From: Planctomycetota bacterium
GTDB lineage: Bacteria; Planctomycetota; UBA11346
Length of the DNA: 34,444 nucleotides
Direction of reading: 5' to 3'
Assembly: GCA_038213805.1 (NCBI GenBank)
Contig: JBBQSO010000060.1
Span: 1 to 34,444 of the forward strand
The translations under genes were made by a program, and so were the position numbers. Below the pieces are notes generated by a model that was not told the DNA's origin, ran no database searches, and saw only the letters and a list, made by a program, of their open reading frames with translations. This document shows, piece after piece, positions 1,574 through 25,281 of the stretch. How positions within the stretch are numbered: the first letter of the stretch is position 1; each line of letters opens with the position of its first letter.

Positions 1574-1576
1574 CGA

Positions 1577-5119: not shown

Positions 5120-5295
5120 AAGCGCGATTTCCGGCGGCGCGCGTCCTTGCCACGCGTGGTGGCGGTGCGCGTACCGTTCCGCGCCGTCAGCGAAAGTCTA
5201 TAGGGTCGATCCCTCTCTTCGTTCAATGCGGGCACGCAGCTGCCGCAGTCCGCGCCTTTGCCCTGCGCGACATCATCGCGCAGGGATCGAAAAGA

Positions 5296-6642
5296 TCAGG
5301 GAACGATGCGAATAAAGGTGACGCGTTCTGATATTTCGATGGTTGTCGCCTTGGCGGCTGTCAGGCCCTTTTCCCTGAGCGTGGAATCAAGCCCAGTGAT
5401 GCTGGTCAATGCCTTGGGCGTGCGGGCGAAGGTGATGGTGCATGGCAGATCCGGCGGATCCGACTGCTCCTTCTGCCCATAGGGTCGGGACTGGTCCCAC
5501 AGATTGCTGGGCAGCCAGACGGCCAGGTAGTACACGCCATCGCGCTTCTGGAACAGGGCGCTGCGCGCCTGCGCTTCGCTTACCGTGACGTCGAGTGGCA
5601 TGACAGGGGACGGTGCGCCAGGATCACGCAGTACCGTCAGCAGGTTGGACATGGCGATCCCCGCAGGCTTCAGGGTCACGCCATCGGCATGCACCAGACC
5701 GAAATTGGCCTCGGGATCCTGCTGGTCGTCATGCAGGTCGAACAGTTCGTAGATGAAGGTGCGTTTCACACCGCTGGCGAAGGTGTGGAGCAGCATGCGG
5801 GGAAGATAGATCCCAGCCATCTCCATGGTGACGGCGACATGGCCCGCCTTGGCGTGATGCGTCGTGTAGCCCGTCTCAGTGATCATCATCGGCTTGGACC
5901 CGGTGAACTTCCGCCCGCCAGCCAGTCCGCTGGGCAGATCTGCCCCCATCCAGGCAGAGCCGTTTTCCGGCTCCCAACCGCCGGGGTAGGGGTGGATGTT
6001 GCCGCAGTCGGCGAAGGCGCTCAAGTCGCCCAGCTTGGCGCCATAGGTGTAATCGGTGACCGACAGGCAGAGGATCGGAAACTGCTTCCACGCGGCATCG
6101 GCGCGGATGGTGGTCCACAGATCCTTCTGATACTGGGCGGCGCGCTCAACGGCCCAGCCGTTGAGATTCACCTCATTCGGACCCTCGAATGCCTCGATCG
6201 CCTCCTTGGCCTTTGCCGCCAATGGCAGCACGCGTTCCACGGGCATGCCGGTGATGACCGTGCAGTGGATGCCGGAGCGGCCGAGGTCATTGAGGCGCTC
6301 GAAATACGTGGGCCACTGCGAGTCCACCAGACCGTCACGGACATGCCGGACGCCCAGCTTCTGCAGCGCCGCCTTCAGGTTGGTGGCGTGGTCGTAGACC
6401 GACCCCTGATAGTGGACGTGGATGTTGACCCCGACGCTGTCGCAGAAGGCATCCGCGGCGACAGCAGTGACGGTTGCCGCAGCGGCGGTGCCGGTGAAGG
6501 CCAGGGCGCTGAGCGCGGCCGTCAGCACCAAGCGGGCAGCTGAGGCGCCACCATATCTGCCGCAGATGGCGGGCCGCAGTGCGACCGTGGAGTTGCTGAG
6601 ATGTGCAGGTCGCGGCCGCTTGTCGCTCAATGCCATGTCCAT
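5296..6642 (-). CDS. Secreted clan GH-A (TIM-barrel, GH5/GH39-like) glycoside hydrolase
   Basis: Hydrophobic signal ending in AAAA; DSVGVNIH, LGVRHVRD, acid/base EGPNE, NIHPY, nucleophile ITETGY, FIYELFD, EANFGL. Exact start is uncertain. Confidence 0.8.
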   Translation of the reverse strand: MDMALSDKRPRPAHLSNSTVALRPAICGRYGGASAARLVLTAALSALAFTGTAAAATVTAVAADAFCDSVGVNIHVHYQGSVYDHATNLKAALQKLGVRHVRDGLVDSQWPTYFERLNDLGRSGIHCTVITGMPVERVLPLAAKAKEAIEAFEGPNEVNLNGWAVERAAQYQKDLWTTIRADAAWKQFPILCLSVTDYTYGAKLGDLSAFADCGNIHPYPGGWEPENGSAWMGADLPSGLAGGRKFTGSKPMMITETGYTTHHAKAGHVAVTMEMAGIYLPRMLLHTFASGVKRTFIYELFDLHDDQQDPEANFGLVHADGVTLKPAGIAMSNLLTVLRDPGAPSPVMPLDVTVSEAQARSALFQKRDGVYYLAVWLPSNLWDQSRPYGQKEQSDPPDLPCTITFARTPKALTSITGLDSTLREKGLTAAKATTIEISERVTFIRIVP

Positions 6643-6906: not shown

Positions 6907-8085
6907 TCACACGCGCAGGAAGATGCGCTTGCGATAGAGCAGGTACAGCAACCCCCACAACGCCAGCGCCGTGCACAATGCCAGGGCGAAGCCCTCGCCG
7001 CGGCCCGCGTGTGCGCACAGACCGCCGCAGACGTGGCGCACGATGTCGCTGAAGCCGAACAGCGGCTCGATCATGTAGGCGATGATGGCGTTGGCGCCGA
7101 TGACCACGAAGGGGAAGCACCAGCGCCGCCAGCCGAGCACGTCGATGGCGCCGAAGAACAGCGCCAGCAGCAGCAGGCTCCAGCCGCCGGCCCACAGCAC
7201 CATGGTCGGCGTCCACAGGTGCTTGATGATCGGCAGCCACAGACTGCCCAGCCAGCCGCCCACCAGGCAGGCCAGTCCGCAGCCGACGAGGATCCAGACC
7301 TTGCGCGCGTCCGACTGCGGTGCGCGCAGCAGCTGCCCGGCGAGCACGCCGAGCAGCGTGGTCGCACCGAAGCCAAGGCAGGCAAGGATCCACGCGTAGG
7401 GTGTGCCGTCCTGATGGCTGCCAAGCAGCGCGTGGTCGATCCAGATCGCCACGTTGCCCGCCTGCGTGAGATCCCCGGCCACGCCGCCGGCCCGCGGCAC
7501 CAGCAGCAGGATCGTGGCGTGAAGCAGCAGCAAGGCCGCGCATACCGCCGCCTGAGCGGATGGCCGGCGCAGTTCCACCAGACAGACGGTCGCGATCAGA
7601 TATCCCGCGGCGATCGCCTGCAGGGTATTGGAAAAGAATGCCAGCCCATCCCAGCGCGCCGCGAGCAGATGCCCCTGCGCGATCATGCCAAGGATCCACA
7701 ACAGCGCCGCGCGGCGCAGGGCCTTGCGGTAGATCGCCCCCCTGCCTTCGCCCGCATCGAGGCGGCGGCCCAGCGAGAACGGCATCGCCACACCCACCGT
7801 GAAAAGGAACAGCGGCATGATCAGGTCCCAGGCCGTGAAGCCGCCCCAATGGTGCCCGGTCTGCCACGCGACGCCCTCCGGGACCTCGCCCAGAACCATC
7901 TCCAGGCCGCCGGTGATCAGGCGGTGGCCGACATCGCCACCCATGATCCAGAACATCACGAAGCCACGCAGGGCGTCGACGGCCAGGACACGCGCGGGCG
8001 GCGCAAGCGGCGCGGGCGGCGCGATGGATCCAGGCACGGTGTCCAGGCTTGCGGCGGGAATGGCGGCGGGAGTGGCGGTGGTCAT
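6907..8085 (-). CDS. HGSNAT-like / DUF5009 (NagX-type) membrane acyltransferase
   Basis: RVLAVDALRGF, H-HWGGFTAWDLIMPLFLF.VGVAM, NTLQAIA, PIIKHLWTPT, VIGANAI; multiple TM helices. Confidence 0.9.
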   Translation of the reverse strand: MTTATPAAIPAASLDTVPGSIAPPAPLAPPARVLAVDALRGFVMFWIMGGDVGHRLITGGLEMVLGEVPEGVAWQTGHHWGGFTAWDLIMPLFLFTVGVAMPFSLGRRLDAGEGRGAIYRKALRRAALLWILGMIAQGHLLAARWDGLAFFSNTLQAIAAGYLIATVCLVELRRPSAQAAVCAALLLLHATILLLVPRAGGVAGDLTQAGNVAIWIDHALLGSHQDGTPYAWILACLGFGATTLLGVLAGQLLRAPQSDARKVWILVGCGLACLVGGWLGSLWLPIIKHLWTPTMVLWAGGWSLLLLALFFGAIDVLGWRRWCFPFVVIGANAIIAYMIEPLFGFSDIVRHVCGGLCAHAGRGEGFALALCTALALWGLLYLLYRKRIFLRV

Positions 8086-8347
8086 GGCTCGATGCGCCCG
8101 CGCGGGCGTGGTGGGCAGGCCGTGAGCATGCGCGGGCCGCTCGTGCCGCACCACCCGCGGCGGGAGCCATCCGGCCGATTGTCGTCAGCAAACGAGACGG
8201 AAGCGCTGAAGGGGGCGGGCGGGTGCCGACCGTCGCGCGCTGCACCCCTGGGACGCAGCGCCGATCGCGCGCGGCCACCCTCGACAGCAACGATGGGGGT
8301 CATGGTGAAGGCTGCGCGCCGGCTGGCACGAGCATCCTTCCAAGGGT

Positions 8348-11300
8348 ATGATCCCCCTCCAGGAATGCCGGGGGTTCGAGGCGATGGTGGTCATGCCGAT
8401 GAATGAGGTCGCCCGGCTCGCAGCGCTACGCGACCTCGTCATTCTCGACAGCGGGGCGGAGGAGGCCTTCGACGAGGTGACGCGCCTCGCCGCATTGGTC
8501 TGCGCGACGCCGATCGCGCTGATCAGCCTGGTCGACGCGCAGCGCCTGTGGTTCAAGTCCCGGGTGGGGCTGGACGCGATGGAGATGGCGCGCACGCACT
8601 CTTTCTGCGCGGCGGCGATCTGCGCGACCGAAACCCTGCTGGAGGTCGCCGACACCACGCTCGATCCTCGCTTCAGCGCACACCCCCTGGTCACCGCTGA
8701 AGTGGGCATCCGCTTCTACGCCGCGGCCGCGCTGGTCGACAGCGCGGGCCACGCCCTGGGCACGCTGTGCGTCCTCGACCGGCAGCCGCGCACCCTGGAG
8801 CCGCGCCAGCGCGAGACCCTGGTGCAGCTGGCGCGCACGGTGGTGCGGCTGCTCCACGAGCGCGCCACGTCCATGCGGCCGGGCGCGCACGCGCAAGCCG
8901 CACCGCAGAGCGCCGCGGAGGAGCGCTTCCGCGTGCTCTTCGAGTACTCCTCCGACGCGCATCTGATCTTCGACGCCGACGGCATCATCGACTGCAACCA
9001 AGCGGCCGTGGCTTTGGTCGGCTGCGCCGGCAAGAACCAGATGATCGGCCTGCATCCGGCCCGGCTGTCCCCGGAGTTCCAGCCCGACGGCCGCCGCTCG
9101 GACGAGAAGTGCATCGAGATGGATGCGCTCGCCAGACAGCATGGCCACCACCGCTTCGAGTGGGATCACCTGCGCCAGGATGGCAGCATCATTCCGGTGG
9201 AGGTGACCCTGACCCCGGTACCGCTGGCGGGGCGCACGGTGCTGCTGACGGTGTGGCACGACCTCACCCAGCGCAGGTACAACGAGGCCGTCGAGCGGCA
9301 GCGTGAGCGGCGCTGGCTGCTCGCGCTCGAGGCCAGCGGCGACGGCGTGTGGGACTGGGAGCCCGGCAGCCGGCACGTGTACTTCTCCCCGCGCTGGAAG
9401 GGCCTGCTCGGCCACGCCGTGGATGGGATCGGTGACGACTTCGACGCATGGGCGAGCCGCATCCACCCGCAGGACCAGGCCGCGGTGCACGCCGAGCTGC
9501 AGGGTCACCTGGCGGGAGCGACGACGCACTACGTCAAGGAATACCGCCTGGCCTGCCGCGACGGCAGCTGGAAATGGGTGCTGGACCGCGGCCAGATCGT
9601 CGAGCGCCACCCGGACGGGCGGCCGCGGCGCATGATCGGGACGCTCTCCGACCTCAGCGCGCGCCGACACATGGAAGATTCGCTGCAGCTCGAGCAGGAG
9701 CGCTTCCGCGCCAGCCTGGCACGCTTCGACCTGGTCGCTTCCGGAGCGGCGATGGGCATCTGGGAGACCCGCTTCACGACCGACCGCCCTTGGCAGGAGC
9801 AGTTCGGCGACCTGCAGCCGTTCTACTGGTCGCCGCGCCTGCTCGCCATCATCGGCCATGAGGACGGCGACTTCCCGGCGCGCTGGTCCGCGCTGACGGC
9901 GCTCATGCACCCCGACCATGTCGCGCTCGGCCACGCGGCATTCACCGACTGCCTGGACGCGGGCGTGCCTTGCAACGTCGAACTGCGGCTGCGCCACCGC
10001 TCGGGCAGGTACCTGTGGATCCACGCCACCGGCGAGGTGGAGCGCGATGGGGCCGGTCGTCCGCTGCGCATGGCCGGATCGCTGTCCGACATCACGGCGC
10101 GCAAACGCAACGAGGAGATGCTTGGCCAGACCCAGGTACGCCTACTTGATGCGGTCTCGGCCATCGATGCCGGATTCGTGATGTTCGACCACGATGACTG
10201 CGTGGTGATCTGCAATGCCCGCTTCATCGATCTCTACGGCCTGCCCGAATGGTGCAGCCGTCCCGGCACCCCCTACCGCCACATCCTCAAGGCGCTGATC
10301 GACCAGGGCAGCCTGCACGAGCTCGGTGACCGCCAGGAGGAATGGGTCGCCGAATGCCTGACCGCGCACCTGCGCACCGGCCACGACCGCGAAGTGCGGC
10401 TCGCCGGGCGCTGGATCCGCATCGCCGAGCGGCGCCTTGCCGACGGCGACATCGTCTCGCTGCACACCGACGTGACCACCCTCAAGGGGGCGGCCGAAGA
10501 GATGCGCCAGGCGCGCGACCTCGCCGAGCAAGCGACGCGTTCCAAGGCCGAGTTCCTCGCCACCATGAGCCACGAGATCCGCACGCCGATGAACGGTGTC
10601 ATCGGCATGACCAGCATGCTGCTCGACACCGCGCTGACCGCGCAGCAGCTCGAGTACGCCACCATCGTGCGCTCGTGCGGCGAAACCCTGGTCGCGCTGA
10701 TCAACGACATCCTGGACTTCAGCAAGATCGAAGCCGGTGCGCTGCAGCTCGAACGCATCCCCTTCGACCCGCGCAGCCTGATCGAGGACGCCCTGGCGGT
10801 GGTCGCCGGACAGGCGCACGCCAAGGGCCTGGAACTGGTCGCCATGGTCGCCCCGCAGGTGCCGGAAAGCCTGGTCGGCGATCCGGCGCGTCTGCGCCAG
10901 ATCGTGTTCAACCTGCTCAGCAACGCGATCAAGTTCACGGCCCGTGGCGAGGTGGTGCTGATGCTCGACGCCGCGCCGGCCGCCGGCGGCCGCGTCGCCA
11001 CGACGCTCACCGTGCGCGATACCGGCATCGGCATCCCCGAGGCCGCGCGTGCGCACCTCTTCCAGCCTTTCTCGCAAGCTGACAGCACGACCACACGCCG
11101 CTTCGGCGGCACCGGCCTGGGCCTGGTGATCTGCCAGCGCCTCGCCAAGTACATGGACGGCGACATCACCTTCGCGAGCGAGCCGGGGCGCGGCACCGAG
11201 TTCACCTGCCTGATGCGCTTCGCCGTCTGCGCGACCGGCGCGGTGGGAGCGCCGCCACCCGCGACCCCTGGCCTGATCGGCCGGAACGCCCTGCTCATCG

Positions 11301-12484
11301 GCGGGCATCCGCTGGCGCGCCAGTCCTTGCGTGCCCTGCTGCAGGGCTGGGGCATGGCCAGCGCGGAGCTGGCCACCTGGTCTCCGGACGCGGCTTTGTC
11401 GCCCGCCACGCCCGACGTGGTGATCATCGACCAGGAGGTGCCAGGCGGCGGCCAGGCGCTTGGCGCCACGCTGGCCGGCGATGCGCGGCTCGCCGCGGTG
11501 CCGCGCATCCTGGTCGCGCCCGCCGGCCGGCGCGGGACCATGGTCGAGTCCCGCGCCGCTGGTTTCACCGGCTTCCTTACCAAACCGTGGCGGCAGTCGC
11601 AGGTGTTCGACTGCCTGATGGCGGCGTTCGGAATCACCTGCCGCATCGGCGACCGCCAGGTCACGCGCGCGCCGGCGCCAGGCGGCGCCACGGCGACGGC
11701 TCCTGCCGCTGCGACGCGCGTGCTGATCGTCGAGGACAACGCGGTCAACCGCCAGGTGGCGACCGCCCTGCTCGGCCGGCTTGGCTGCCGCTGCGATTTC
11801 GCGTGCGACGGCGAAGAGGCGGTGGCCGCGACCGCCGCGACCGCATACGGAATCGTGTTCATGGACTGCCAGATGCCGGTGATGGACGGCTACGCCGCGA
11901 CCGCTGCGATACGCGCGCGCGAAGGCGCCGGCCCACGCGTGCGCATCGTCGCCCTCACCGCCAACGCCATGGCGGATGACCGCAAGCGCTGCCTGGACGC
12001 AGGCATGGACGATTTCGTCACCAAGCCGCTCAACGATGGCGACCTGGCAGCAGCGCTGGCGCGCGCGGCCGGTGCTGCGGTGGCGCTGCCGCCGGCCATC
12101 TCGCCCGCAGCTCCATCACCGCCCAGCCCGGTGCTGCCGACGCTCGACGGCCCCCTGCTGCTCGCCCTGCGCGCCGTGACCGGGCGACAGGCGATGCACG
12201 CGATCGTGGAGATGATGCGCGACGAGGCGCAGGCCATGCTCGGCGAGCTGCGCTGCGCCGCCGGGTCCGGCGACGCCGCGGTGCTCGCGCAGGTCGCCCA
12301 TCGCCTGCGCGGCTCATCCGGCACACTGGGCATGGCGCAGGTGAAGGCCCTCTGCCAGGACCTGGAGCAGCGCGCGCTGACGCGCCGGCTCGACGGCAGC
12401 CACGAGCTCGTCGAACGCATCGCCAGCGCCGTGACGACCGGCCTATCCGAGCTTGCGGCGCATCCGGCGATGACCGCGGACTGA
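8348..12484 (+). CDS. Cytoplasmic hybrid sensor histidine kinase GAF-PAS(x4)-HisKA-HATPase-REC(degenerate)-REC-Hpt
   Basis: GAF NEVARLAAL..WFKS..SFC; PAS/PAC repeats; [50 protein letters not shown]; Hpt AHRLRGSS. The true start may be 8384 or 8393. Confidence 0.95.
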   Translation: MIPLQECRGFEAMVVMPMNEVARLAALRDLVILDSGAEEAFDEVTRLAALVCATPIALISLVDAQRLWFKSRVGLDAMEMARTHSFCAAAICATETLLEVADTTLDPRFSAHPLVTAEVGIRFYAAAALVDSAGHALGTLCVLDRQPRTLEPRQRETLVQLARTVVRLLHERATSMRPGAHAQAAPQSAAEERFRVLFEYSSDAHLIFDADGIIDCNQAAVALVGCAGKNQMIGLHPARLSPEFQPDGRRSDEKCIEMDALARQHGHHRFEWDHLRQDGSIIPVEVTLTPVPLAGRTVLLTVWHDLTQRRYNEAVERQRERRWLLALEASGDGVWDWEPGSRHVYFSPRWKGLLGHAVDGIGDDFDAWASRIHPQDQAAVHAELQGHLAGATTHYVKEYRLACRDGSWKWVLDRGQIVERHPDGRPRRMIGTLSDLSARRHMEDSLQLEQERFRASLARFDLVASGAAMGIWETRFTTDRPWQEQFGDLQPFYWSPRLLAIIGHEDGDFPARWSALTALMHPDHVALGHAAFTDCLDAGVPCNVELRLRHRSGRYLWIHATGEVERDGAGRPLRMAGSLSDITARKRNEEMLGQTQVRLLDAVSAIDAGFVMFDHDDCVVICNARFIDLYGLPEWCSRPGTPYRHILKALIDQGSLHELGDRQEEWVAECLTAHLRTGHDREVRLAGRWIRIAERRLADGDIVSLHTDVTTLKGAAEEMRQARDLAEQATRSKAEFLATMSHEIRTPMNGVIGMTSMLLDTALTAQQLEYATIVRSCGETLVALINDILDFSKIEAGALQLERIPFDPRSLIEDALAVVAGQAHAKGLELVAMVAPQVPESLVGDPARLRQIVFNLLSNAIKFTARGEVVLMLDAAPAAGGRVATTLTVRDTGIGIPEAARAHLFQPFSQADSTTTRRFGGTGLGLVICQRLAKYMDGDITFASEPGRGTEFTCLMRFAVCATGAVGAPPPATPGLIGRNALLIGGHPLARQSLRALLQGWGMASAELATWSPDAALSPATPDVVIIDQEVPGGGQALGATLAGDARLAAVPRILVAPAGRRGTMVESRAAGFTGFLTKPWRQSQVFDCLMAAFGITCRIGDRQVTRAPAPGGATATAPAAATRVLIVEDNAVNRQVATALLGRLGCRCDFACDGEEAVAATAATAYGIVFMDCQMPVMDGYAATAAIRAREGAGPRVRIVALTANAMADDRKRCLDAGMDDFVTKPLNDGDLAAALARAAGAAVALPPAISPAAPSPPSPVLPTLDGPLLLALRAVTGRQAMHAIVEMMRDEAQAMLGELRCAAGSGDAAVLAQVAHRLRGSSGTLGMAQVKALCQDLEQRALTRRLDGSHELVERIASAVTTGLSELAAHPAMTAD

Positions 12485-13070: not shown

Positions 13071-13096
13071 GATCCACCCCACTCTTGGAGCCTGTC

Positions 13097-14257
13097 ATGC
13101 GCCTCTCGCCCCTGCTTGCATCCCTCACTCTGGCCATCGCGACAGCGGTGATCGGCTGCAGCAGCCCGTTCTCGTCGTCGTCCGGCTCCAGCGCGGTGGC
13201 CGCCATCACCACCCACAACTACACCGGCACGGCGAGCGTCGGCGACTTCATCAGCATGACGCTTGATAGCAGTGCGCATACCTTCAGCTACGTCAACCAC
13301 AGCAACGGCTTGAGCGGCGGGGGCACCTTCACCGTGAACGTCGATGGCAGCTACGCCATGACTGACAGCTCGAGCTGCTTCACCGACGCCTACGAGGTCC
13401 CCGGCTTCGCGCTGGTGCTGCGCGGCACCCGGACCGGCCCGACGCAGGACACGGTGTCCCTGGTCACGGCCCTGCAGTCCCAGGTCAACACCGTCGCCGG
13501 GGTGGCCAACCGCGACTTCAACTACATGCAGTTCCGCACCAACTCCGGCGGCGTCGAGGTCGGCTTCGTCGGCATGGGTCCCGCGGCCGAGATAACCACT
13601 GCGAGCTACTGGCCATACGGCGCCACCCAGCTTGTCCCGGAGGCCTTCCACCCGGCCAGCACCTTTCCCGGCTCGCCGGTCGAGGACACCGCCACCGGCG
13701 CGCTCAAGCTGACCACCGTCGACAGCGGCATCAGTTCCGACAACTTCATATTTGCCACCAGCAGCGGGCTGCTCGCGGTGGACACCGGCAACGGCAGCCT
13801 GGTGTGCTTCCGCCAAGCCGCGAGCACCGCCTTCGTTCCCAGCGTCGCCGGTACCTACCGGGCGTTGGCCTTCGCCAAGAACGGTGCGGACACCGGCAGC
13901 GGCAACACCGAGACGCCGGCGGTGGGCACGGTCGCGAAGCTCAGCATCAGCCTTGACGCGAGCGGCCTGATCTCGGTCACCGACGCCGGAAGCACGGTGC
14001 TCGCCAGCGGTACCATCGCGCCATTCGACAGCACCCTGACCACCGGTATCGGCAATGCCTGCCCGGGCATGTTCCACCTGACCATCCCGCGCATCGCCGC
14101 CGACGGCGTGACCGCGGTCAACCAGGAGCTGTTCCTGACCTTCGTCGGCGATGCGCTGATGTTCTCGTCCTTCCAGCCCGACCCCAGCCTCGGAAGCATG
14201 CGCACCTATGATTACTTCTACGGTGTGGCGCTGAAGCAGAACGCCAGCAACGGCTGA
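13097..14257 (+). CDS. Beta-rich lipoprotein of unknown function (386 aa)
   Basis: GGAG RBS; signal peptide II MRLSPLLASLTLAIATAVIG-C; Ser linker; Thr/Gly/aromatic beta-strand pattern. Confidence 0.8.
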   Translation: MRLSPLLASLTLAIATAVIGCSSPFSSSSGSSAVAAITTHNYTGTASVGDFISMTLDSSAHTFSYVNHSNGLSGGGTFTVNVDGSYAMTDSSSCFTDAYEVPGFALVLRGTRTGPTQDTVSLVTALQSQVNTVAGVANRDFNYMQFRTNSGGVEVGFVGMGPAAEITTASYWPYGATQLVPEAFHPASTFPGSPVEDTATGALKLTTVDSGISSDNFIFATSSGLLAVDTGNGSLVCFRQAASTAFVPSVAGTYRALAFAKNGADTGSGNTETPAVGTVAKLSISLDASGLISVTDAGSTVLASGTIAPFDSTLTTGIGNACPGMFHLTIPRIAADGVTAVNQELFLTFVGDALMFSSFQPDPSLGSMRTYDYFYGVALKQNASNG

Positions 14258-14329
14258 GCCGTCAGGGACCGGTCCCGCCAACGCCGTGGACGGAGGCGGG
14301 GCGGTAGCGCCCCTCACCCAGCGCCGGGA

Positions 14330-15448
14330 TCACGCGTCCGCGATCGGCAGGGTGAACGAGAAGCAGGCCCCCTTGTCCGCCTCCGCTTCCGCCCAGATGC
14401 GCCCACCGTGGCGATGCACGATGCGTTGCGCGATCGACAGGCCGAGGCCGTTGCCCTCGAACTCATCCTCGCGGTGCAGGCGCTGGAAGACCCCAAACAG
14501 GCGGTCGGCATGGGCCATGGCGAAGCCGACCCCGTTGTCGCGCACGTGGTATACGACCTCGCGGTCGACGATACGGGATCCGACCTCGAGCTCTGGACGC
14601 GCGCGGGTACGGGTGTACTTGAAGGCATTGGCCATCAGGTTGAAGAATACCTGCCGGAGCAGTACAGGATCGCCCAGGCACGGGTGGAGGGCGCCCATCG
14701 TGATGTCGACGGCAGTGCCCGTCTGCGCGGCCTGCAGGTCCGCAACCACGCCGAGCACCAGGCCGGCGACCTCGACGCGTTGGGGGACCGCCGGCTGCTG
14801 ACCGAGGCGCGCAAAGCGCAGCAGCCCGGCGATCAGCTCTTCCATGGTGTTGACGTTGCGGATCACGCGCTCGAACAGGTCCTTGGCCTCGGCGGGGAAC
14901 CGCGTGCCGTGCTCGTCGATCAGGATGCCCACGAACCCGCCGATGGCGCGCAGCGGGGCGCGCAGGTCGTGGGAGACCGACGCGGCGAAGGATTCGAGCC
15001 CCTGGTTGATCATCAGCAGTTCCGCGCTGCGCTCGCGCAGGCCTTCCTCGAGCGCCGCGTTCTGTTGGCGCAGGGTGCGCATCATCACGGCACGCGAGAG
15101 CACGTGCAGCAGTTCGGCGCGCCTGAACGGCTTGAGCACGTAGTCGAGTGCACCGACCTGCATCGCCTCGACCGCGGTGGAGATCGAGCCCGCGCCGGTC
15201 ATGATCACCCCGACCATCGCCGGATCGATGCGCGCAGCGCTGCGCAGCAGGTCGATGCCGCCGATGCCGGGCATCTGCAGGTCCGCGAGCAGCACATCGA
15301 AGCGCGTGGTCTCAAGCGCCGCGAGCGCGGCGGCGCCGCGGGTGAACCCGGTGGCTGCGTAGCCGCTGGCGTCCAGCGTCTGGCACAACGCCTCGAGATG
15401 CGGCTGCTCGTCGTCGACGACGAGGATGGGAATCGGTGACGGGGGCAT
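14330..15448 (-). CDS. Receiver-histidine kinase hybrid (REC-HisKA-HATPase)
   Basis: ILVVDDE, LLADLQMPG, DYVLKP; SVSHDLRAPLR; NLMANAFKY; DNGVGF; FQRLH..EFEGNGLGL. Confidence 0.95.
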   Translation of the reverse strand: MPPSPIPILVVDDEQPHLEALCQTLDASGYAATGFTRGAAALAALETTRFDVLLADLQMPGIGGIDLLRSAARIDPAMVGVIMTGAGSISTAVEAMQVGALDYVLKPFRRAELLHVLSRAVMMRTLRQQNAALEEGLRERSAELLMINQGLESFAASVSHDLRAPLRAIGGFVGILIDEHGTRFPAEAKDLFERVIRNVNTMEELIAGLLRFARLGQQPAVPQRVEVAGLVLGVVADLQAAQTGTAVDITMGALHPCLGDPVLLRQVFFNLMANAFKYTRTRARPELEVGSRIVDREVVYHVRDNGVGFAMAHADRLFGVFQRLHREDEFEGNGLGLSIAQRIVHRHGGRIWAEAEADKGACFSFTLPIADA

Positions 15449-15461
15449 GCAGCGGGCCGCG

Positions 15462-18422
15462 TCAGGGTCGCGTGGGCGGAAGGAGGCGGGCGAGCGCCGC
15501 GCGCAGCTCGTGCAGCTTCGGCGGCTTGCTCAGGAGGCTGTCGACGTGGCGCGGCACCTCGGCTTCGCCGGCCAGCCGCCGGCCCCAGCCGGTCAGCAGG
15601 ATGACCGGGGTGCCCGGTGAGAGCGCCTTGACCGCGGCCGCGACCTCGCGGCCGTCGACGTGCGGCATGCCGAGATCGGTGAAGACCGCGGCGAAGGCCC
15701 CGGGCGAACCGAGGGCGGCGCCGAAGGCCGCGATGCCGGCGCGGCCGTGGTCGGCCGTGACCACCTCGTGGCCGTCGCCGGAGAGGGCCTCGCGCAGTGA
15801 GGCGAGCAGCAACGGATCGTCGTCGATGACCAGCAGGCGCAGCGGACCGGGCGGCAGGGCAGCGAGCACGCTGCGCTCGGCCGCGACCGCCGCTGCGGGC
15901 ATCGGGAAAGCCAGGCGCACGGTGGTGCCCTGACCCGGCGTGCTGGCGATGGCGAGCAGCGCATGGTGGCGCTGCGCGATGCCGTAGACCATGGCCAGGC
16001 CGAGGCCGCTGCCGCGCTCGCCCTTGGTGGTGAAGAACGGCTCCAGGCAGCGGCGACGGGTCTCCTCGTCCATGCCCTGCCCGGTGTCCGCGACCGCGAC
16101 CTGCACCGTCGCCGCACCGCCAGCCTCGGTCGCGATAGCGGTCGTGACGGTCACCACACCGCCGGCGGGCATGGCATCGACCGCGTTGAAGATCAGGTTG
16201 ACCAGCGCCTCGCGGATCTCGCTGGCGACGCCCAGCACCGCCGGCAGCCCTGGGGCGAGCTGGGATTCCACGCGCACCACCACACCGCGCTGCTGCGGCA
16301 TGTCGCTCCAGCGCGCGCGCGTCAGGTCGAGCACCTGCGGGACCAGCTCGTTGAGGTCGAGCGGCACCAGCGTGGTCTGGTCATCGCCCTGGCGGAAGAA
16401 CTCCCCAAGGCGCGCGACGGTGTGCGCCACATCGCCGAGCGAGCGCTCGATGACCTGCAGGCTCCGGCGCCCCTTCTCGCTGAGACCCGGCTCCTGCTCC
16501 AGCAGCATGTCGGTGTAGAGCATGGTCGGCGAGATCGCATTGTTGATGTCGTGCGCGATGCCGCTGGCCATCTGACCAAGCGCGCGCAGCCGCTCCTGCT
16601 GCAGTACCGCCTGCTGGGTCTGGCGCAGGTCGTCATAGGACTTCTGCAGCGCCGTGTGCATCTGGTTCTGGTGCGCGGCGAGCGCGACGTGCTCGCTGAC
16701 CTGCTTGAGGAATTCGCATTCGCCGCTGCTGAAGCTGCCGGCCGCGGACCGCGCGGTTATCAGCGCCCCGAAGACGGCGCCATCGACGATCAGCGGTGCG
16801 GCGACGAAGGCCCGCAACCCGCCGCTGAGGAGGCGGCGCGGGAAGGGGAAGTCGACCTGCTCGAGGTCGCCCTCGTAGACCACGCTGCCAGCCACGCACA
16901 GCGACAGACCGTTCTGGTCGATCGGGATGGTCGCTCGCACCGGCATGGTCAAGGTCGCGGCGAGGCCTTCGCTCAGCACCCCGACGTTGGTCACGGTCAG
17001 GGCGTGCGCCGCCGGGTCGAACCGGCACATGCAGCAGAAATCGACGGGCAGCCGCTCTTCGAGGCAGCGCAGCACCACCTGGAAGATGCTGTCCAGGTCC
17101 TGGCGCTCGGCGACGGCGCGGGTGATGCGGTTGAGCAGGTCCAGGCGGGCGAGCTGGGCCTGGACGCGCGCCTCGGCCTGGTGCCGGGCAGAGATGTCGC
17201 GCACGATCTTCGAGGCGCCGACGATGGCGCCCCGTTCATCGCGGATCGGTGAGATGGTGATCGACACCGGGATGGCGCGACCGTCCTGGCGCACGCGCTC
17301 GGTCTCGAAGTGGTCGAGGCGCTCGCCGCGCGCGATGCGCGCAAGGATGTGCGGCTCCTCCCCGGCCCGTTCCGGTGGAATGAGGGTGAGGATCGGCCGA
17401 CCGACGATGTCCGCGGCCGCGTACCCGAACAGCACCTCCGCACCGCGGTTCCAGCTGGTGATGACGCCGGACAGGTCCTTGCTGATGATGGCGTCGTCGG
17501 AAGACTCGACGATCGCGACCAGGTGCCGCCGGGCCTCGTCTGCCTTGCGGCGGTCGCCGAGGTCCAAGGCGAATGCCACCCCACTGGTGCGCGTGGCATC
17601 GAGTGTCGCCGCGCCGAGCAGGACCGGCACGCGCGTGCCATCCGTGCGCTGGTACTCCTTCTCGAACGGCGTGCAGACCCCGTCACGGTGCAGTTCGCCG
17701 AGTGCGTGCGCTTCCGCCGCCGTCCACTCGGATGGGCTGAGGGCACAGCGCGCGAGGGTACCGGCACGCAGCTCGTCGCGGGTGTGGCCGACCAGCTCAA
17801 GGAACCGCTGATTGGCGTCGGTGATGTCGCCGGCCGCGTTCCAGAACAGAATGCCGAGCATGTTCGAATCGACCACGCTTTTGAAGCGCGCCTCGCTGCG
17901 CGCCAGGGCCTCGACCGCGCGCGTCCGCTCCGCGACCTCCGCGTGCAGGGCGGCGTTGGCCGCCTCCAGCTCGGCGGTGCGCGCGCGCACCCGCTGCTCG
18001 AGCTCCCCCTGGTTGGCGCGCAGCGCCGCCTCGGCGCTCTGCAGCTCGCTGATCAGGGGCACGGCGAGGATCTGCGGGATGAGTCGCACGAGCAGGATGG
18101 CGGTGGCGATCGAGGCGATGGCGGTCACCGCCTTCACGGTCCCGCCCAGCCAGTAGAGCGGCAGCCACACCGCGATGACGTCCAGGAGGTGGGTCAGCCC
18201 GCAGGCGACGATGAAGGCCGCAAAACAGAAGAACACCGGCCCGAAGGGCACCCCTTTCCGCTTCCTGATGATATGGATGAGGATGACCGGGATCGACACG
18301 TAGGCGGCGAAGATCAGCGCATCGCTGACGACATTCAGCCACAGCACGCCTGGGTCCCAGCTGTAGCAATGGCCGTGCGGCATGAAGCCGTCACCCGAGA
18401 ACAGGCGCTCGAACCAGGTCAT
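15462..18422 (-). CDS. Ethylene-receptor-like hybrid histidine kinase (ETR1-type 3-TM domain-PAS-PAS-GAF-HisKA-HATPase-REC)
   Basis: N-terminal [33 protein letters not shown]; two [41 protein letters not shown]-terminal receiver IDDD..TDLGMP..KP. Confidence 0.92.
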
Positions 18423-18467
18423 TGGGATCTTCTTCCGCTAGGTTGCGCGCCGCCAGCCATGCGGCGC

Positions 18468-18495
18468 AGCGTGCCGAGCGGGTGTTCCATGTCAA
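18468..18495 (-). promoter_or_regulatory. Putative sigma70 promoter of the ethylene-receptor-like operon
   Basis: Minus strand TTGACA (18495-18490)-N16-CACGCT (18473-18468). Confidence 0.4.
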
Positions 18496-18710
18496 AGCGG
18501 ACGCGCGCCGCGCCCGCCCCGGCGGCCGGCTGGGCCGTGCCAAGCGCGCGCGGTCGGGCGTGCGGGTGCGCGGGGCCTCCAGCGCACCCGCACGCGGCAG
18601 GATGGATTTGGCACTGCGGTCGGCGCCGCCACAGTGCCCTCCGCGCCCCAGCGCCCGCCATCCGGCCACCCCGGACGCGTCCAGCGACCGTCCGAGGAGA
18701 CCATCCCGCC

Positions 18711-19715
18711 ATGCGCATCGCCTGCTTCAGTACCAAGCCCTACGACCGTACCTTCCTCGAAGACGCCCGGTGCGCGCCCGGCCGCGGCGATCTCGAACTG
18801 GTCTATCTGCAGCCCGCGCTCGCCCTCGAGACCGTCGTGCTCGCCGCCGGCTTCCCAGCGGTCTGCGTGTTCGTCAACGATCGTGCCGATCGCCCGGTGC
18901 TTGAGCGCCTGGCCGCAGGTGGCACGCACGTGATCGCGCTGCGCTGCGCGGGCTTCAACAACGTCGACCTCGCCGCCGCCGCCGCGCTGGGCATCACCGT
19001 GGTGCGGGTGCCGGCCTACTCGCCGCACGCCGTCGCCGAGCACGCGGTGGCGCTGATGCTGATGCTCGACCGCCGCCTGCACCGCGCCTACAACCGCGTC
19101 CGCGAGGGCAACTTCGCGCTCGACGGCCTGCTCGGCTTCGACATGCGCGGCAAGACCGTGGGCGTGGTCGGCACCGGGCGCATCGGCGCGGTGGTGGCCC
19201 GCATCCTCGCCGGCTTCGGCTGCGTGTTGCTCGCGCACGACCCGCTGCGGGACCCCGGCGTGAGCGCGCTCGGCGCGCGCTACGTCGACCTCGAGGAGCT
19301 GCTTGCGGCCAGCGACATCGTCACCCTGCACGCGCCACTGGTCCCCGCCACCCGTCATCTGATCGACGCGCGGCGCATCGTCGGCCTCAAGCGCGGCATG
19401 ATGCTGATCAACACCAGCCGCGGCGCGCTGGTCGACACCGTGGCCGTGGTCGCGGCGCTGAAGGACGGCACCATCGGCGCCCTCGGCCTGGACGTCTACG
19501 AGGAGGAGGCCGACCTGTTCTTCCAGGACCACTCGTCGCAGGTCCTGCAGGACGACGTCTTCGCGCGTCTGCTGACCTTTCCCAACGTGGTCATCACCGG
19601 GCACCAGGGCTTCTTCACCGCGGAAGCGATGGCCGCGATCGCCGACACCACCCTGGGCAATCTGACGGCGATCGCGCGCGGCGAGGCGTGCGTGAACGCG
19701 GTCCGCGCGGTCTGA
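18711..19715 (+). CDS. ldhA: NAD-dependent D-lactate dehydrogenase (D-2-hydroxyacid dehydrogenase family)
   Basis: [82 protein letters not shown]. Confidence 0.92.
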
Positions 19716-19835: not shown

Positions 19836-22800
19836 TCAGAGGCCGGCTGGCCCCGCGAGCAGCTCGGCGATGCGCTGGACGAGCACCTCCGGGCGGAATG
19901 GCTTGGCCAGGAAACCGACTGCCCCCTGGCTGAGGAGGGCCTCGATGCCCCCGCTCTCGCTGTAGCCCGAGACCACCAGCACGCGGATGCCGGCATCGAT
20001 CTGGCGCAGCGCCGCGAAGGTCTCGGGGCCACCCATCACCGGCATGTTCATGTCGAGGATGACCAGATCGATCTGCTTACAGTGGCTGCGGAAATGCTCT
20101 ACGCCGGCGGCGCCATCGCTGCGGCTGACCACGATGTGGCCGAATTCACTGAGCGTGTCCTCGACCAGCGCGCCGACCAGGCCCTCGTCCTCGATCATCA
20201 GGATGCGCGCGGCCGCTCCCGGGATGGGGCGATCGGGCGCGCTGGCGGCCGCAACGACCTGGGTCGCCGCCAGCGGCAGGAAGACCTGGAAGACGGTGCC
20301 GCGACCAGGCGTGCTCACCACCTCGATGCCGCCGTCGTGCTGCTTGACCGTGCCGTAGACCGACGCCAGGCCGAGTCCGGTGCCCTGGCCCGGGGCCTTG
20401 GTCGAGAAGAACGGTTCGAAGAGGTGGCGCTGGACTTCGGCTGACATCCCTTCGCCGCTGTCGCTGACGGTGATGCGCAGGTGGCGGCCGCACCCCATGC
20501 CGCCGCCCAGACGCGCGACCTGCTCCGCATCGAGGTCGACCACGCTGGTGGCGAAGCGCAGCTGGCCGCCTTCCGGCATGGCGTCGCGGGCGTTGAGGGC
20601 GAGGTTGAGGAAGGCGTTCTGCAACAGGCCGCGATCGCCGGTGACCACGGCCGCATCGGCGCGCAGCGCCAGCTCGATGCGGATACGCTTGTCGAGGCTG
20701 CGCCCGAGTACGTCCTGGAGCTCGGCGAGGATGCCGTGCAGATCGACGGCGACGATGGCGTGGCGACCCTTGCGCGAGAAGCTCAGCAGCTGGCGCACGA
20801 GGTCGGCGGAGTGTTCGGTGGCGCTGACGATGTGGCGCAGGTGCTTGGCCAGGCCCTCGTCCTCGGCGCGCTTGAGGGCGAGCTGCCCGTAGCCCTGGAT
20901 GACGGTCAGCTGGTTGTTGAAGTCGTGCGCAATACCGCCGGCGAGGCGGCCGACCGCCTCCATCTTCTGCGCCTGGCGCAGCTCGTCCTCCAGGCGCCGC
21001 CGCTCCGAGATGTCGGTGACCATCGCCATCGCGCCGGCGTAGGCGCCGTGCTCGCCATGGATGGGGTTGGTCGCGACCAGGGTCCACAGCGCGGAGCCGT
21101 CGCGACGGCGGAAGGTGAAGTCGTGCTGCTCAGCGATGCCTTGCCGACGCCGTGCGAGGTTCTTCTCGGCAGCCGCGCGGCCCTCATCGTCCATGAAGTC
21201 GAAGATCGGCCGACCAAGCATCTCTGCCGGGGTCCAGCCGAGCATCGCCGCCATCTTCGGGTTGACGAAGCTGGTGCGGGCCTGGGCATCGATCGTCCAG
21301 ATACCCTCGTTGGCGGTTTCGACGATGCGGCGGTAGCGTTCCTCGCTGGCGCGCAGCCGGGCCTCGCCAAGCTTGCGGTGGGTGATGTCGAAGAACGACG
21401 AGACCACGCCCAGGGCGGTGCCGTCCGCGTCGCGGACCACCTCGGAGTTCGAGCAGATCCAGGCGTAGCTGCCGTCCGGGCGGGGGATGCCCACCTCGAC
21501 GTCGCGCACCGGCTGGCCGGTGCGCAGCGCGACCACCGACGGCTGCTCCTCCAGCGGGAAAGGCGTACCGTCGCCGCGCACCAGCCGATTGCGGATTTCC
21601 AGCTTGGGATCGCCGAGGTCGCCGACCGGGAAGCCAAGCACGCGCTCCACGGCATCGTTGATCAGTACCACGCGGCCTTCCAGATCCATCAGTACCAGGC
21701 CCTCGGAAAGCGCGCGCAGCACGGCGCTGCTGCGCGCCTCGTTGGCGCGCAGCGCATCCGCGATGCGCTGGCGCTCGGTGATGTCGCGCAGGAAACCCGC
21801 GAAGCGGTGCTGCCCGGCGATCAGCGTGTGGGAGAACGAGATCTCAAGTGCGACCTCGTGGCCGTCACGGTGCAGGCCGGGAACCTGCGTCGCCCGCCAG
21901 TCGAGGCGCTTGCTGCCGTCGGCCAGGTAGCGGGCGAAGCCATCGAGATGCCCCTGCCGCAGCCGCTCCGGCTGGAGGATGCTCAGGGATTGGCCGACGA
22001 CCGCCGCGGGGTCGTGGCCGAGAACGGTGCGCAGTGCGGGGTTGGCGTACTGGATGACCCCCCGTTCATCGATGATCAGCACCGCGTCGCTGGTGGTCTC
22101 CCACAGCATCCGGTAGCGCTCCTCGCTTTCACGGATGGCGCGCTCGGCGGCGCGGCGCGCGCTGATGTCGGCGACGAAGCCGACCATGCGCGTGATGCCG
22201 CCAGTCGCATCGAGGACGAAATTGCCGTCGTCCTGCACGTGCAACCAGGCGCCGTCCTTGCGGGCCACGCGGTATTCCATGCGGAACGGTGTGCGCGTGG
22301 CGATGACGCGCGCGACCTCGGCCTCGAAACCGGCGCGGTCGTCGGGGTGGATGAGCGACACCCAGTGCGCCAGGCCGCCGGCCAGCTCTGCGAGCGTGAA
22401 ACCAAGGATGCGCATGGTGTCGCCGGCGTAACTCACCCGATTGGTGACCGGATCCCAGTCGTAGAGCAGCTGGCCGCTGGCGTCGATGGTCGCCTCGTAG
22501 CGGTTCTTCCACTCCACCACCGATGACTCGGCCCGGCGGATCTCGGTGACGTCGACCACTACCACGCGGCAAGCGCGGGTGTCGTCTGCCGCGAGCGCGG
22601 TGAGGCGAACGCTGCGCGGCGGCGCGCCGTCGCGCCACAGGCGCAGTTCGCACACCTGCGCCCCACCACCGGAGAAGGCCTGCTCCAGGCAGGCTGCGCA
22701 GGCGGCGCGGTCGGCCTCGACCACGAACAGCGCCAGGCGCCCCCCGGGCTGGTGGTCGTGGGCAAGCCCGAGCAGATCCGTCCCGGCGCGGTTGGCCTGG

Positions 22801-25019
22801 ACGATGCTGCCGGCCCGGTCGAGGGTGAAGTAGCCCACCGGTGCGGAGTCGAACAGGTCGGTGTAGCGGGCCAGCCCAAGCTCGGCCGCGCCCCGCGCCC
22901 GCGTCAGCTCCTCGTTCATGGTGCGCAGCTCCTCGGCCGCGGTGGTCAGCTCCTCGTTGGTGGACTGCAGCTCCTCGTTGGTCGAGGTCAGCTCTTCGCG
23001 CGAGGTCTGCATCTCCTCGCGGGTCACCTGCAGCTCCCCGCGGGTGGCGAGCAGCGCCTGCTCCATGGATTTCAGGCGCGCGCTCTGGCGGTTGGCGCCG
23101 CTCGCGCGGCTGGCGGCCGCCGGCGCACCGCTGGTGGTGACGTCGGCGAACATGACCAGCACCATCCCCTGCAGCGCCGCCGGCTCGGCCAGCAGCTGCA
23201 CGGTGATGTCCACGGCGTGCGCGACGCCGTCCGCGTCGGCCTGCACCGCGGCCACGGTCACCGCCGCCGGCTGGCCCAGGGCGTCGTGGAAGGCCTCGCT
23301 CAATGCGGCGTCCAGGCCGGCGCGCGCCATGGCGAGGATGTTCCAGTTGGCCTTGCCGGTGGGCAGCTCGAGGTAGCGTCCGGTCTGGCCGCAACTGTGC
23401 AGCACGTCGCCGGCGATAGTGACCAGGACCGAAGCTGGAGCGAAGCGGCGCTCCAGCTGCTGGTCGGTGAGCGCCTGGAGGTCGGCGGTGATCTGGGAGT
23501 TCATGGGCTGGGCACTCCGGAGCGGTGGCGCGGCGGGCGGGACGGGCGCGGGGCCCAGGGACATCGCGAACGGGGCCGGGGGCGGGTGCGCGTCGCGGCG
23601 CCGGTAGAAGCGGCCGGAACCGGGCAGCGGGACGAACACGGTGCTGGCCGCGCCCACGGACTCCGAGCTGCCGAGCAGCAGCACCCCACCGGACGCCAGG
23701 CTGTAGTGGAAGCGCGCGAGGATGGCGTCGTGCACCGTTGGCGCCAGGTAGATCATCAGATTGCGGCAGGTCAGCAGGTCGAGGCGCGTGAAGGGCGGGT
23801 CGGCGAGCAGGCTGTGCGGCGCGAAGATCACCATCGCGCGGATCTCCTTGCCCACCTGCAGGCCGTGGGCGTCGGTGGTGAAGAAGCGGCGCACGCGCTC
23901 TGGGCCGATGGCCGCGGCGCTGGCGGCCGGATAGCGGCCGCGACGAGCGTGGGCGATGGACTCCTGATCGAGGTCGGTGGCGAAGATCTGCAGCGTGCAC
24001 GCGGGCACCTGCGGAGCGCGCTCGAGGGCCTCGCAGAAGGCCATGGCCAGCGAGTAGGCCTCCTCGCCGGAGGCGCAGCCGGCGACCCACGCGCGCAGCG
24101 CGCCACCATCCGGGTGGCGCGCGAGCAGCGCCGGGATGATGTCCGCGCGCAGCTGCTCCCAGACCTCCGGATCGCGGAAGAAGCTGGTCACCCCGATCAG
24201 CATTTCGCCGAACAGCAGCCTGACCTCGGCCGGGTCGGTGTGCAGCAGGGCCGCATAGTCCGCGATTCCGGGCAGGCGGCGCAGGCCGGCGCGCCGTTCG
24301 ATGCGGCGGTGGAGCGTGGTCTTCTTGTAGTTGGAGAAGTCGTGCCCGGTCTGCGTGCGCAACACCTGGAGGATCTCGGCGAGCGCGCCATCGCCCCCGG
24401 CGCCCTCACCCGCGCGGGCGGGCGGTGGGCGGCACAGCGCGGACATGATCAGACCGGGGAGCTGTTCTGGCGCGGCGACCAGCATGGCGTGCCCGCCGGC
24501 GATGGCGCTGGCGGGCATGCCGGCCGCCCCGGCCGTGGCCGGCTCCTGCGCCGCGGTCATGCCGCCGGCCTCGCTCAACGCGGCCAGTCCCAGCGTGCCG
24601 TCGTGACCCGTTCCCGACAGCACCACGCCGACGCCGTCCGGCCCCTGGTCCCTGGCCAGCGCGCAGAAGCAGGCGTCGATGGGCTGCCGGCCACCCGCCC
24701 GTTGCACCGGCGCGAGCCGCAGGATGCCGTCGGCGATGCTCAGCTCATGATCGGGCGGCAGCACGTAGGCATGATCGGGGGCGATGCGCGTGCCGTCGAC
24801 GATCGCCGCCACCGGCATGGCGGTGGCCCGCGCGAGCAGTTCCAGCAACAGACCCCCATGCGCGGGATCGTGATGCTGGACCACCACGTAGGCCAGGCCG
24901 CTGCTCCGCGGCACGTTCGCGAGAAAACCGGTCAGCGCCTCGAGCCCGCCGGCGGAGGCGCCGAGGCCGACGACCGGGATGCGGCACGGGGATGCGCCGT
25001 GGTGCGGGACACCGCTCAT
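19836..25019 (-). CDS. CheB-CheR fusion multi-PAS hybrid histidine kinase with C-terminal receiver
   Basis: CheB GASAGG / VQH / SGTGHDG; Che[38 protein letters not shown] coiled coil; about six [13 protein letters not shown]; HATPase; REC LDMNMP..KP. Start is 25019 or 25085. Confidence 0.93.
22905..23020 (-). repeat. Coding heptad repeat (EELxSTNEEL) of the CheB/CheR kinase coiled coil
   Basis: CAGCTCCTCG-like units recur at 21-nt spacing and encode [38 protein letters not shown]. Confidence 0.8.
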
Positions 25020-25281
25020 GCCGGAGCCGGCCGCCCAGGCCGCGCGCAGCCCCTTGGCTCGCCCATCGACTTCATCGCAATCCACGCAGGTCCGTCATGC
25101 CGGACCAGGATGGTCGCCGAGGTGGAAAATCAAACTTCCTCGCTGCCCCATCGCCCACTCGGCCGCGTCATGCGCCGGCGCGGGCCGACGGACAGCTGGA
25201 CTTGATCTCAGCCCGGGGCGCAGATATTGCGGAGTTGCAGAGGGCGCAGGTCGGCGCCGCCACCTGCCACCTTCCCGGCGT

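Follow-up and report, generated by a model that had tools for sequence, protein, structure and literature searches.

The window analysed here is a 34,444-nt stretch of contig JBBQSO010000060.1 from a Planctomycetota bacterium (assembly GCA_038213805.1), and its reverse strand carries an open reading frame for a hybrid sensor histidine kinase of 986 aa (P0001; 15462..18422, with codons 1-120 at 18063..18422). The domains follow one another in the order ethylene-binding domain, long helix, PAS, PAS, GAF, HisKA (with His624), HATPase and receiver (REC, with Asp916). The start is an ATG at 18422, and GGAAGAAG sits 6 nt upstream of it; because Ser9 and Phe13, which both lie N-terminal to Met14, are conserved in relatives (invariant in 14 proteins), the long N-terminus that begins before Met14 is supported. 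Third-position G+C is 0.91 in the kinase frame and similar in other likely genes of the window, and a relative of the same length (P0002, 986 aa) aligns without gaps at 85% identity. A scan of positions 13900-18800 returned no promoter-like site and one terminator-like site, which did not rise above shuffled sequence, and Rfam and tRNA scans of the whole window gave no match.

At the N-terminus, residues 26-121 (18060..18347, reverse strand) match the Pfam family ETR1_N (PF25487) over positions 2-97 of its 97-position model, with a score of 120.7 bits (E = 3.3e-35) against a cut-off of 27 bits. Hydropathy peaks at about residues 26-54, 56-90 and 92-127 delimit three hydrophobic segments, and AlphaFold2 predicts helices at 24-54, 61-83 and 90-120 (mean pLDDT 85.6); segments and predicted helices alike fit a three-helix membrane domain. 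A preliminary description of this DNA had named seven ethylene-binding residues and a lysine in the third helix (VKAVTA), and counting along the translation located every one of them: D34, Y41 (the counterpart of ETR1 Y32, which we take to be a binding residue), I44 and P45 in helix 1, I71, C74 and H78 in helix 2, and K97 within V96-K97-A98-V99-T100-A101 in helix 3. The alignment to AzoEtr1 that it had proposed, for which we took the AzoEtr1 sequence from a plasmid of Azospirillum brasilense Sp7, is gap-free at about 42% identity, and with a constant offset of -1 it brings the eight residues into register with AzoEtr1 D35, Y42, I45, P46, I72, C75, H79 and K98. Register with Arabidopsis ETR1 was derived indirectly, from this alignment together with published equivalences that pair ETR1 D25, C65, H69 and K91 with AzoEtr1 D35, C75, H79 and K98 (PMC11819568), and it therefore yields an offset of +9 for the residues of helices 1 and 2 and of +6 for the helix-3 lysine; I35, P36 and I62 are likewise named as ETR1 residues in published work. 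The claim of a constant +9 offset without gaps thus holds for the seven residues and fails for the domain as a whole, because the H78-K97 spacing is three residues shorter than that between ETR1 H69 and K91. Together, these comparisons support the view that the N-terminus is a true homologue of ethylene-binding domains, with the predicted copper ligands C74 and H78 one helical turn apart in helix 2 and all of the binding residues in place. Searching the domain sequence against the PDB yielded no match at E ≤ 10, and a Foldseek search of the predicted model against the PDB gave none at E ≤ 1e-3 (137 at E ≤ 10).

The domain belongs to a very large family, with 8744 cluster representatives recovered at E ≤ 1e-3. 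Among 258 relatives that we compared (49-85% identity), all seven binding residues are identical in 246 and none has an insertion or deletion between positions 34 and 97, a sign of strong constraint on these residues. Chance similarity of residues in a hydrophobic N-terminus, or an open reading frame that is not a real gene, can be set aside as having a negligible probability: both are refuted by the Pfam match, the thousands of homologues and the 85%-identical full-length relative, and the third-position G+C also speaks against them. Reviews describe ethylene-binding domains in many proteobacteria and cyanobacteria, and we found loci encoding them in Verrucomicrobiota, Myxococcota, Bacteroidota, Acidobacteriota and Actinomycetota as well; when the literature was searched for ethylene-receptor terms alongside Verrucomicrobia or Myxococcota, no paper listed contained the ethylene terms. 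Because the domain is common in environmental bacteria, we regard the gene as an ordinary member of its group, that is, a further predicted member of the already known family of ethylene-receptor-type kinases and one more predicted receptor in a family that Pfam models and reviews call widespread. The preliminary description had stressed that functional bacterial examples are few, which is true of experimentally tested receptors, whereas the rarity this implied is contradicted by the family size and by the frequency of the complete residue set. A tree of low resolution clusters the domain with those of soil Verrucomicrobiota, Myxococcota and Pseudomonadota and apart from two cyanobacterial rows. 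Lineages without a known plant link thus retain the complete set of binding-site residues.

Ahead of helix 1, and outside the Pfam match, lies the motif P15-H16-G17-H18-C19-Y20-S21-W22 (HGxC..W; 18357..18380, reverse strand). It is almost invariant, with C19 in 258 and H16 in 256 of the 258 relatives, and HGxC recurs in all nine diverse bacterial domains aligned, AzoEtr1 and two cyanobacterial ones included. C19 is the only cysteine N-terminal to helix 1, whereas plant receptors carry two N-terminal cysteines that form inter-chain disulfides, a pair that is absent here; cyanobacterial proteins have likewise been reported with one N-terminal cysteine (PMC6682694). Published mention of the motif extends only to this "one cysteine" as a possible substitute for the plant disulfide, and no paper came up when the literature was searched for the motif strings. 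The motif is predicted to be periplasmic from the positive-inside rule, given the RKRK at 53-56. As a speculation that we think has a fairly small chance of being right, H16-G17-x-C19 might form a second conserved metal site, which would either pass periplasmic Cu(I) to the buried C74 and H78 or fill out the copper coordination where the two protomers meet. Bacterial ethylene-binding domains would in that case be self-loading with respect to their cofactor, and the site would be relevant to the debate over copper stoichiometry and to the question of how the receptors acquire copper; the motif offers a cheap, testable lead for copper loading.

The remainder of the protein, encoded like the rest on the reverse strand, is a chain of signalling domains. 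A long predicted helix (aa 125-185; 17868..18050), possibly a signalling helix or coiled coil, bridges membrane helix 3 and PAS 1 in the full-length AlphaFold2 model, which is informative here for shape only because pLDDT in this stretch is about 41-74. PAS families of Pfam match two stretches of the kinase: PAS 1 covers approximately aa 178-290 (17553..17891; PAS_8 at 178-226, with AlphaFold2 strands and helices at 190-287), and PAS 2 covers aa 300-415 (17178..17525; PAS at 300-410, E = 2.4e-24, and TIGR00229 at 297-419). The GAF domain follows at aa 441-582 (16677..17102; E = 1.6e-10), with C509 invariant and C464 and C569 each present in at least 90% of the 14 proteins. The kinase core comprises a HisKA dimerisation and phospho-acceptor domain (aa 615-676; 16395..16580), in which His624 of the AHDINN sequence is invariant in the same 14 proteins, and a HATPase_c catalytic domain with N and G boxes (aa 733-842; 15897..16226; E = 9.7e-20). 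The C-terminal receiver (aa 864-977; 15492..15833) has an acidic pocket at D867-D869, the phospho-acceptor Asp916, near-invariant in that set, and Lys966. With both phospho-acceptors intact, the earlier designation as a hybrid kinase is borne out; the protein itself lacks an Hpt domain. Its characterization as a plant-like GAF-HK-REC protein, on the other hand, is not supported: a helix of 60 residues and both PAS domains separate the binding domain from the GAF domain, and the best solved relatives of the kinase core are the bacterial KinB, ZraS, CckA and FixL. The PDB contains ETR1 kinase and receiver fragments, and none of the 46 PDB sequences found at E ≤ 1e-5 in a search with the kinase core is a chain named as an ethylene receptor.

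The position of two PAS domains and a GAF domain with conserved cysteines between membrane domain and kinase would also suit a protein in which signals enter through this cytoplasmic part and the three-helix domain is mainly a membrane anchor or dimerisation module. We consider such a role improbable, because the near-invariance of D34, Y41, I44, C74, H78 and K97 across the 258 relatives would be unexpected for a plain anchor; moreover, relatives fuse the domain to numerous other outputs, GGDEF-EAL and HWE kinases among them, as expected for a sensor module. The PAS and GAF domains could nevertheless dominate as inputs, a point that counts against reading the protein as an ethylene-responsive kinase.

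Among known receptors, AzoEtr1 is described as an ethylene receptor of a proteobacterium, shown as such by experiment in A. brasilense Sp7 (PMC11819568); it has D, C, H and K at the positions equivalent to those here and shares the HGxC motif, PAS and histidine kinase domains follow in both proteins, and a receiver-domain gene lies directly downstream in both. AzoEtr1 is, however, reported as a protein of 525 aa with one PAS domain and with neither a GAF domain nor a receiver of its own, whereas the window protein has 986 aa, a PAS-PAS-GAF series and a fused receiver, and the partner of AzoEtr1 is given as a plain 160-aa receiver protein where the window kinase is followed by a REC-kinase. The closest published architecture, compared by its published description, is that of GeiEtr2 from Geitlerinema sp. 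PCC 7105, which has 1025 aa with a binding domain, PAS/PAC, GAF, kinase and receiver, but a cyanobacterial host; the experiments demonstrated that Geitlerinema cells bind ethylene, rather than GeiEtr2 alone (PMC6682694). Layouts of about 1000 aa that combine the binding domain with GAF, HisKA, HATPase and REC occur in 13 of the 120 relatives listed, at 47-85% identity. SynEtr1 (Slr1212/UirS/PixA) of Synechocystis PCC 6803 shares the N-terminal ethylene-binding domain and the histidine kinase, and reportedly signals by passing phosphate to a response regulator encoded next to it; it differs in having a cyanobacteriochrome (light-sensing) domain, which makes it a dual receptor for light and ethylene (PMC6682694), whereas the window protein gives no sign of a bilin-binding role and its host is not a cyanobacterium. 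ETR1 itself resembles the window protein in its Cu(I)/ethylene-binding domain of three helices, where the binding residues correspond at +9, and in having GAF, histidine kinase and receiver in the same order. In ETR1, a subfamily 1 receptor, the GAF domain comes directly after the membrane domain, unlike the arrangement here with a helix and two PAS domains between them, and the kinase core of the window protein resembles the bacterial KinB, ZraS and CckA types; plant signalling is described as largely independent of kinase activity and as passing through CTR1.

Downstream on the same strand, a gene for a 372-aa REC-HisKA-HATPase protein (14330..15448) starts 13 nt past the kinase stop and is likely an operon partner and the next step of the relay. 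In other genomes, 20 of 36 open reading frames immediately downstream of binding-domain genes contain a receiver domain, and in one case (L040) a comparable REC-kinase, 27% identical, follows a binding-domain kinase; under strict criteria, no full-length orthologue of the 372-aa protein was found beside other binding-domain genes.

On balance, we judge it reasonably probable, by analogy with tested receptors, that the gene product is a hybrid kinase that senses ethylene in a Cu(I)-dependent manner. It would be a homodimeric protein of the inner membrane with ETR1_N as its input module, and each protomer, if it behaves like ETR1, SynEtr1 and AzoEtr1, would hold Cu(I) through C74 and H78 of helix 2. 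By the same comparison with tested homologues, D34 would place H78 and pair with K97 of helix 3, and ethylene would sit at the copper in a site lined by Y41, I44, P45 and I71. Ligand binding could then alter helix packing and be transmitted through helix 125-185 and the PAS-PAS-GAF series to a helix at 566-643 that carries His624, with the PAS and GAF domains probably supplying further inputs. Ethylene is reported to inhibit ETR1 kinase activity, and in accounts of Synechocystis and Azospirillum loss of the receptor mimics ethylene; on the analogy of such an inverse-agonist model, ethylene would probably reduce autophosphorylation here. Phosphate might be handed from His624 to Asp916 in the fused receiver and from there, directly or by way of an Hpt carrier (the Hpt domain of the protein encoded at 8348..12484 is a candidate), to the REC-kinase, a route that is a guess because the downstream partner is itself a REC-kinase and the hybrid kinase lacks its own Hpt domain. 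An arrangement of this kind suggests that an ethylene-type sensor can feed a multi-kinase relay, from hybrid kinase to REC-kinase.

The identity of the ligand invites another explanation, namely that the Cu(I) site is real and the physiological signal in this host is something other than ethylene, such as another pi-acceptor or alkene (propylene, acetylene, CO or isocyanides), oxygen or redox state at Cu(I), or copper availability. The size of the family, its spread through soil and water phyla without a known plant association and the mere handful of members tested all lean towards it, and the D-2-hydroxyacid dehydrogenase and cytochrome bd oxidase encoded by neighbouring genes are at best a hint of an oxygen or redox theme. 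We nonetheless think a non-ethylene signal unlikely, given that every member tested to date (ETR1, SynEtr1, Geitlerinema cells and AzoEtr1) binds ethylene and that the residues lining the ethylene site, beyond the copper ligands, are conserved here.

The host context agrees with the preliminary description in showing nothing cyanobacterial: G+C in the window is 0.64-0.73, the nearest named relatives of CydA are from Vicinamibacteria and Kofleriaceae MAGs (66-68% identity), which belong to two separate phyla, and the domain stands away from the cyanobacterial rows of the tree. A scan of genome contigs gave no close genome, its best match being 59% identical over part of the protein, and megablast of positions 12000-34444 against plasmids produced only short patches at 70-85% identity. 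No ecology ties this uncultured high-G+C host to plants, and none of the 23 window open reading frames scanned is a copper-handling gene; both observations weigh against the ethylene-sensing kinase. Should binding prove true, it would favour the view that soil bacteria in general use ethylene, or some comparable ligand of Cu(I), as a signal from their environment. In plant-independent soil bacteria the domain may read accumulated ethylene as a proxy for poor aeration, an idea weaker than the metal-site proposal for the HGxC motif and prompted by the cytochrome bd and lactate-dehydrogenase-type neighbours.

The span flagged from sequence as an ETR1-type sensor domain (18063..18422) comprises codons 1-120 of a minus-strand ORF that encodes a 986-aa hybrid kinase (15462..18422). 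The kinase ATG lies at 18422 with GGAAGAAG 6 nt upstream, and S9 and F13, both N-terminal to the internal Met14, are invariant in 14 related proteins; because residues ahead of Met14 are conserved in relatives, the long start is favoured, and translation likely begins at ATG 18422. The Pfam family ETR1_N ("Ethylene receptor 1-like, N-terminal domain"; PF25487) matched aa 26-121 over model positions 2-97 of 97 (120.7 bits, E 3.3e-35), a resemblance beyond chance. Counting along the translation bore out the seven residues of the preliminary description (D34, Y41, I44, P45, I71, C74, and H78) together with the VKAVTA lysine, K97, and we take Y32 of ETR1 to be the counterpart of Y41. Hydropathy indicated three membrane helices, as expected, and an AlphaFold2 model of the domain (50 sequences, mean pLDDT 85.6) placed helices at residues 24-54, 61-83, and 90-120; no solved structure resembled the domain, either by sequence or by fold at E<=1e-3.

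To place these residues relative to ETR1, we used the Azospirillum brasilense receptor AzoEtr1 as an intermediate. A plasmid tblastn search with the domain matched 19 records, seven of them from Azospirillum, and the A. brasilense Sp7 record contained a 525-aa ORF whose start and length correspond to the cloning primer and the figure in PMC11819568. The alignment of the domain to AzoEtr1 that had been proposed as a check was free of gaps, with an offset of -1. AzoEtr1 C75, D35, H79, and K98 are reported to be equivalent to ETR1 C65, D25, H69, and K91 (PMC11819568), and ETR1 I35, P36, and I62 are reported as essential (PMC6586836). Together, the alignment and these equivalences, through which the register was obtained rather than from the ETR1 sequence itself, place D34, C74, and H78 at +9 to ETR1. 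This agrees with the +9 given earlier. The helix-3 lysine, K97, falls at +6, so the stretch from helix 2 to that lysine differs in length by three residues from its ETR1 counterpart.

A second conserved element, P-H-G-x-C-Y-x-W (aa 15-22; 18357-18380, minus strand), precedes membrane helix 1 outside the Pfam match, and contributes H16-G17-x-C19 followed by W22. All 258 relatives kept C19 and 256 of them H16, and the HGxC motif recurred in every one of nine diverse bacterial domains compared by alignment, AzoEtr1 and two cyanobacterial ones among them. The sole remark in PMC6682694 concerns a lone cysteine at this location as a possible stand-in for the plant disulfide, and a literature search for the motif strings returned no paper containing them. 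By the positive-inside rule the segment should face the periplasm, and the motif may serve in copper entry or as a second metal site, rather than supplying a disulfide cysteine alone.

The domain proved very common, contrary to the rarity implied earlier. Of 672 candidates from a word-indexed protein search, 490 passed E<=1e-3, and the listed rows carried PF25487 by eye. An exhaustive search recovered 8744 cluster representatives at E<=1e-3, with 6466 still left at <=1e-10 and 1023 at <=1e-30. Among the 258 relatives returned by both searches combined, 246 had all seven residues identical, and the stretch from position 34 to 97 was free of indels in every one. The domain was present at 49 of the 80 loci kept from a genome scan, spanning Verrucomicrobiota, Pseudomonadota, Myxococcota, Bacteroidota, Acidobacteriota, and others, a range that reaches far beyond the two groups, proteobacteria and cyanobacteria, named in the published accounts consulted. 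Those accounts already describe ethylene-binding domains with varied outputs in many members of both groups, and here we also observed fusions to GGDEF-EAL and HWE-kinase outputs; the kinase therefore adds one member to an already known family. Functionally tested bacterial examples are indeed scarce, AzoEtr1 being termed the first ethylene receptor reported in a proteobacterium. On an Acaryochloris plasmid Gln replaces the helix-3 Lys, and on a Rhodovastum plasmid the helix-1 Asp is absent and Asp occupies the Lys position; these natural variants could show which positions are important.

In a quick tree of 59 domains, with rows from Verrucomicrobiota (22), Myxococcota (7), Bacteroidota (3, Pontibacter), Acidobacteriota (3), and Acidimicrobiia (1), the domain paired with that of P0002, a full-length relative (support 99). 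The pair fell within an unresolved soil-phyla group, apart from AzoEtr1 and two cyanobacterial rows, in a tree where 31 of 56 inner branches were without support. As previously described, we saw no cyanobacterial features in the window; named relatives of its CydA, 66-68% identical, were from Vicinamibacteria and Kofleriaceae MAGs. The genome scan turned up no closely related genome, and a search against plasmids gave no match to the window.

Downstream of ETR1_N, Pfam placed two PAS domains (about aa 178-290 and aa 300-415, the latter at 17178-17525), GAF (aa 441-582; 16677-17102), HisKA (aa 615-676), HATPase_c (aa 733-842), and REC (aa 864-977), all on the minus strand, with the phospho-sites His624 and Asp916 in place. 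This layout had been called plant-like, but in plant receptors, as published, GAF directly follows the membrane domain, whereas here two PAS domains intervene; the order instead matches the published description of the cyanobacterial GeiEtr2. The binding domain, GAF, HisKA, HATPase, and REC were common to 13 of the 120 relatives listed (47-85% identity over full length), one of them, P0002, 85% identical without gaps. In a model of the entire protein (14 sequences, mean pLDDT 72), the long helix 125-185 joined membrane helix 3 to the first PAS, and helix 566-643 ran from GAF into the phospho-acceptor region. The best solved relatives of the kinase core were KinB, ZraS, CckA, and FixL, with no ethylene-receptor chain among its 46 PDB matches. 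Across 14 proteins of this architecture the GAF cysteine C509 is invariant and C464 and C569 occur in at least 90%; these could provide redox or metal input, or be structural only. The second PAS (aa 311-406) matches PDB chain 5iu1_A, named "CTR1-like protein" (E 2.4e-8), probably through ordinary PAS similarity without a tie to plant ethylene signalling.

The kinase, whose place in the family, conserved site, order of domains, and gene adjacency are demonstrated, is best read as a Cu(I)-dependent ethylene sensor governing a phosphorelay, with copper, ligand, and partner all putative; the earlier interpretation is right in kind and overstated on rarity and plant-likeness. Ethylene would probably reduce the activity of the kinase, following the published inverse-agonist model. 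Alternatively, the Cu(I) site could read another ligand or a redox signal, or the kinase could be driven mainly via PAS/GAF. For the ethylene-sensing phosphorelay, a candidate partner is the 372-aa REC-HisKA-HATPase gene that begins 13 nt past the kinase stop on the same strand. Receiver domains occurred in 20 of 36 ORFs downstream of other binding-domain genes (from 44 complete genes, eight without a nearby ORF of at least 100 aa; five more genes ran off contigs), and one of the 20 is likewise a REC-kinase, 27% identical to that of the window.

Five sensor kinases are encoded within the 34 kb of the window. These include a 1378-aa PAS-kinase-REC-Hpt hybrid (8348-12484, plus strand), whose Hpt could serve the ethylene-type kinase, a 1749-aa protein in which CheB methylesterase, CheR methyltransferase, several PAS, histidine kinase, and REC are fused (19836-25085, minus strand), and a kinase that combines two periplasmic solute-binding domains with REC (30621-33737, minus strand), the end of which is overlapped by a receiver protein (33734-34438, minus strand). 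A divergent D-2-hydroxyacid dehydrogenase gene lies upstream of the ethylene-type kinase, with cydAB further on, and no copper-handling families were seen in the 23 window ORFs scanned. ORFs 1577-2629, 3836-5119, 5296-6642, 6907-8154, and 13085-14257 matched no Pfam family. G+C across the window is 0.64-0.73, with positions 1-6000 lower (0.64-0.65 versus about 0.70 elsewhere); this segment, which carries an ISL3-family transposase (46-1155), is possibly acquired DNA.
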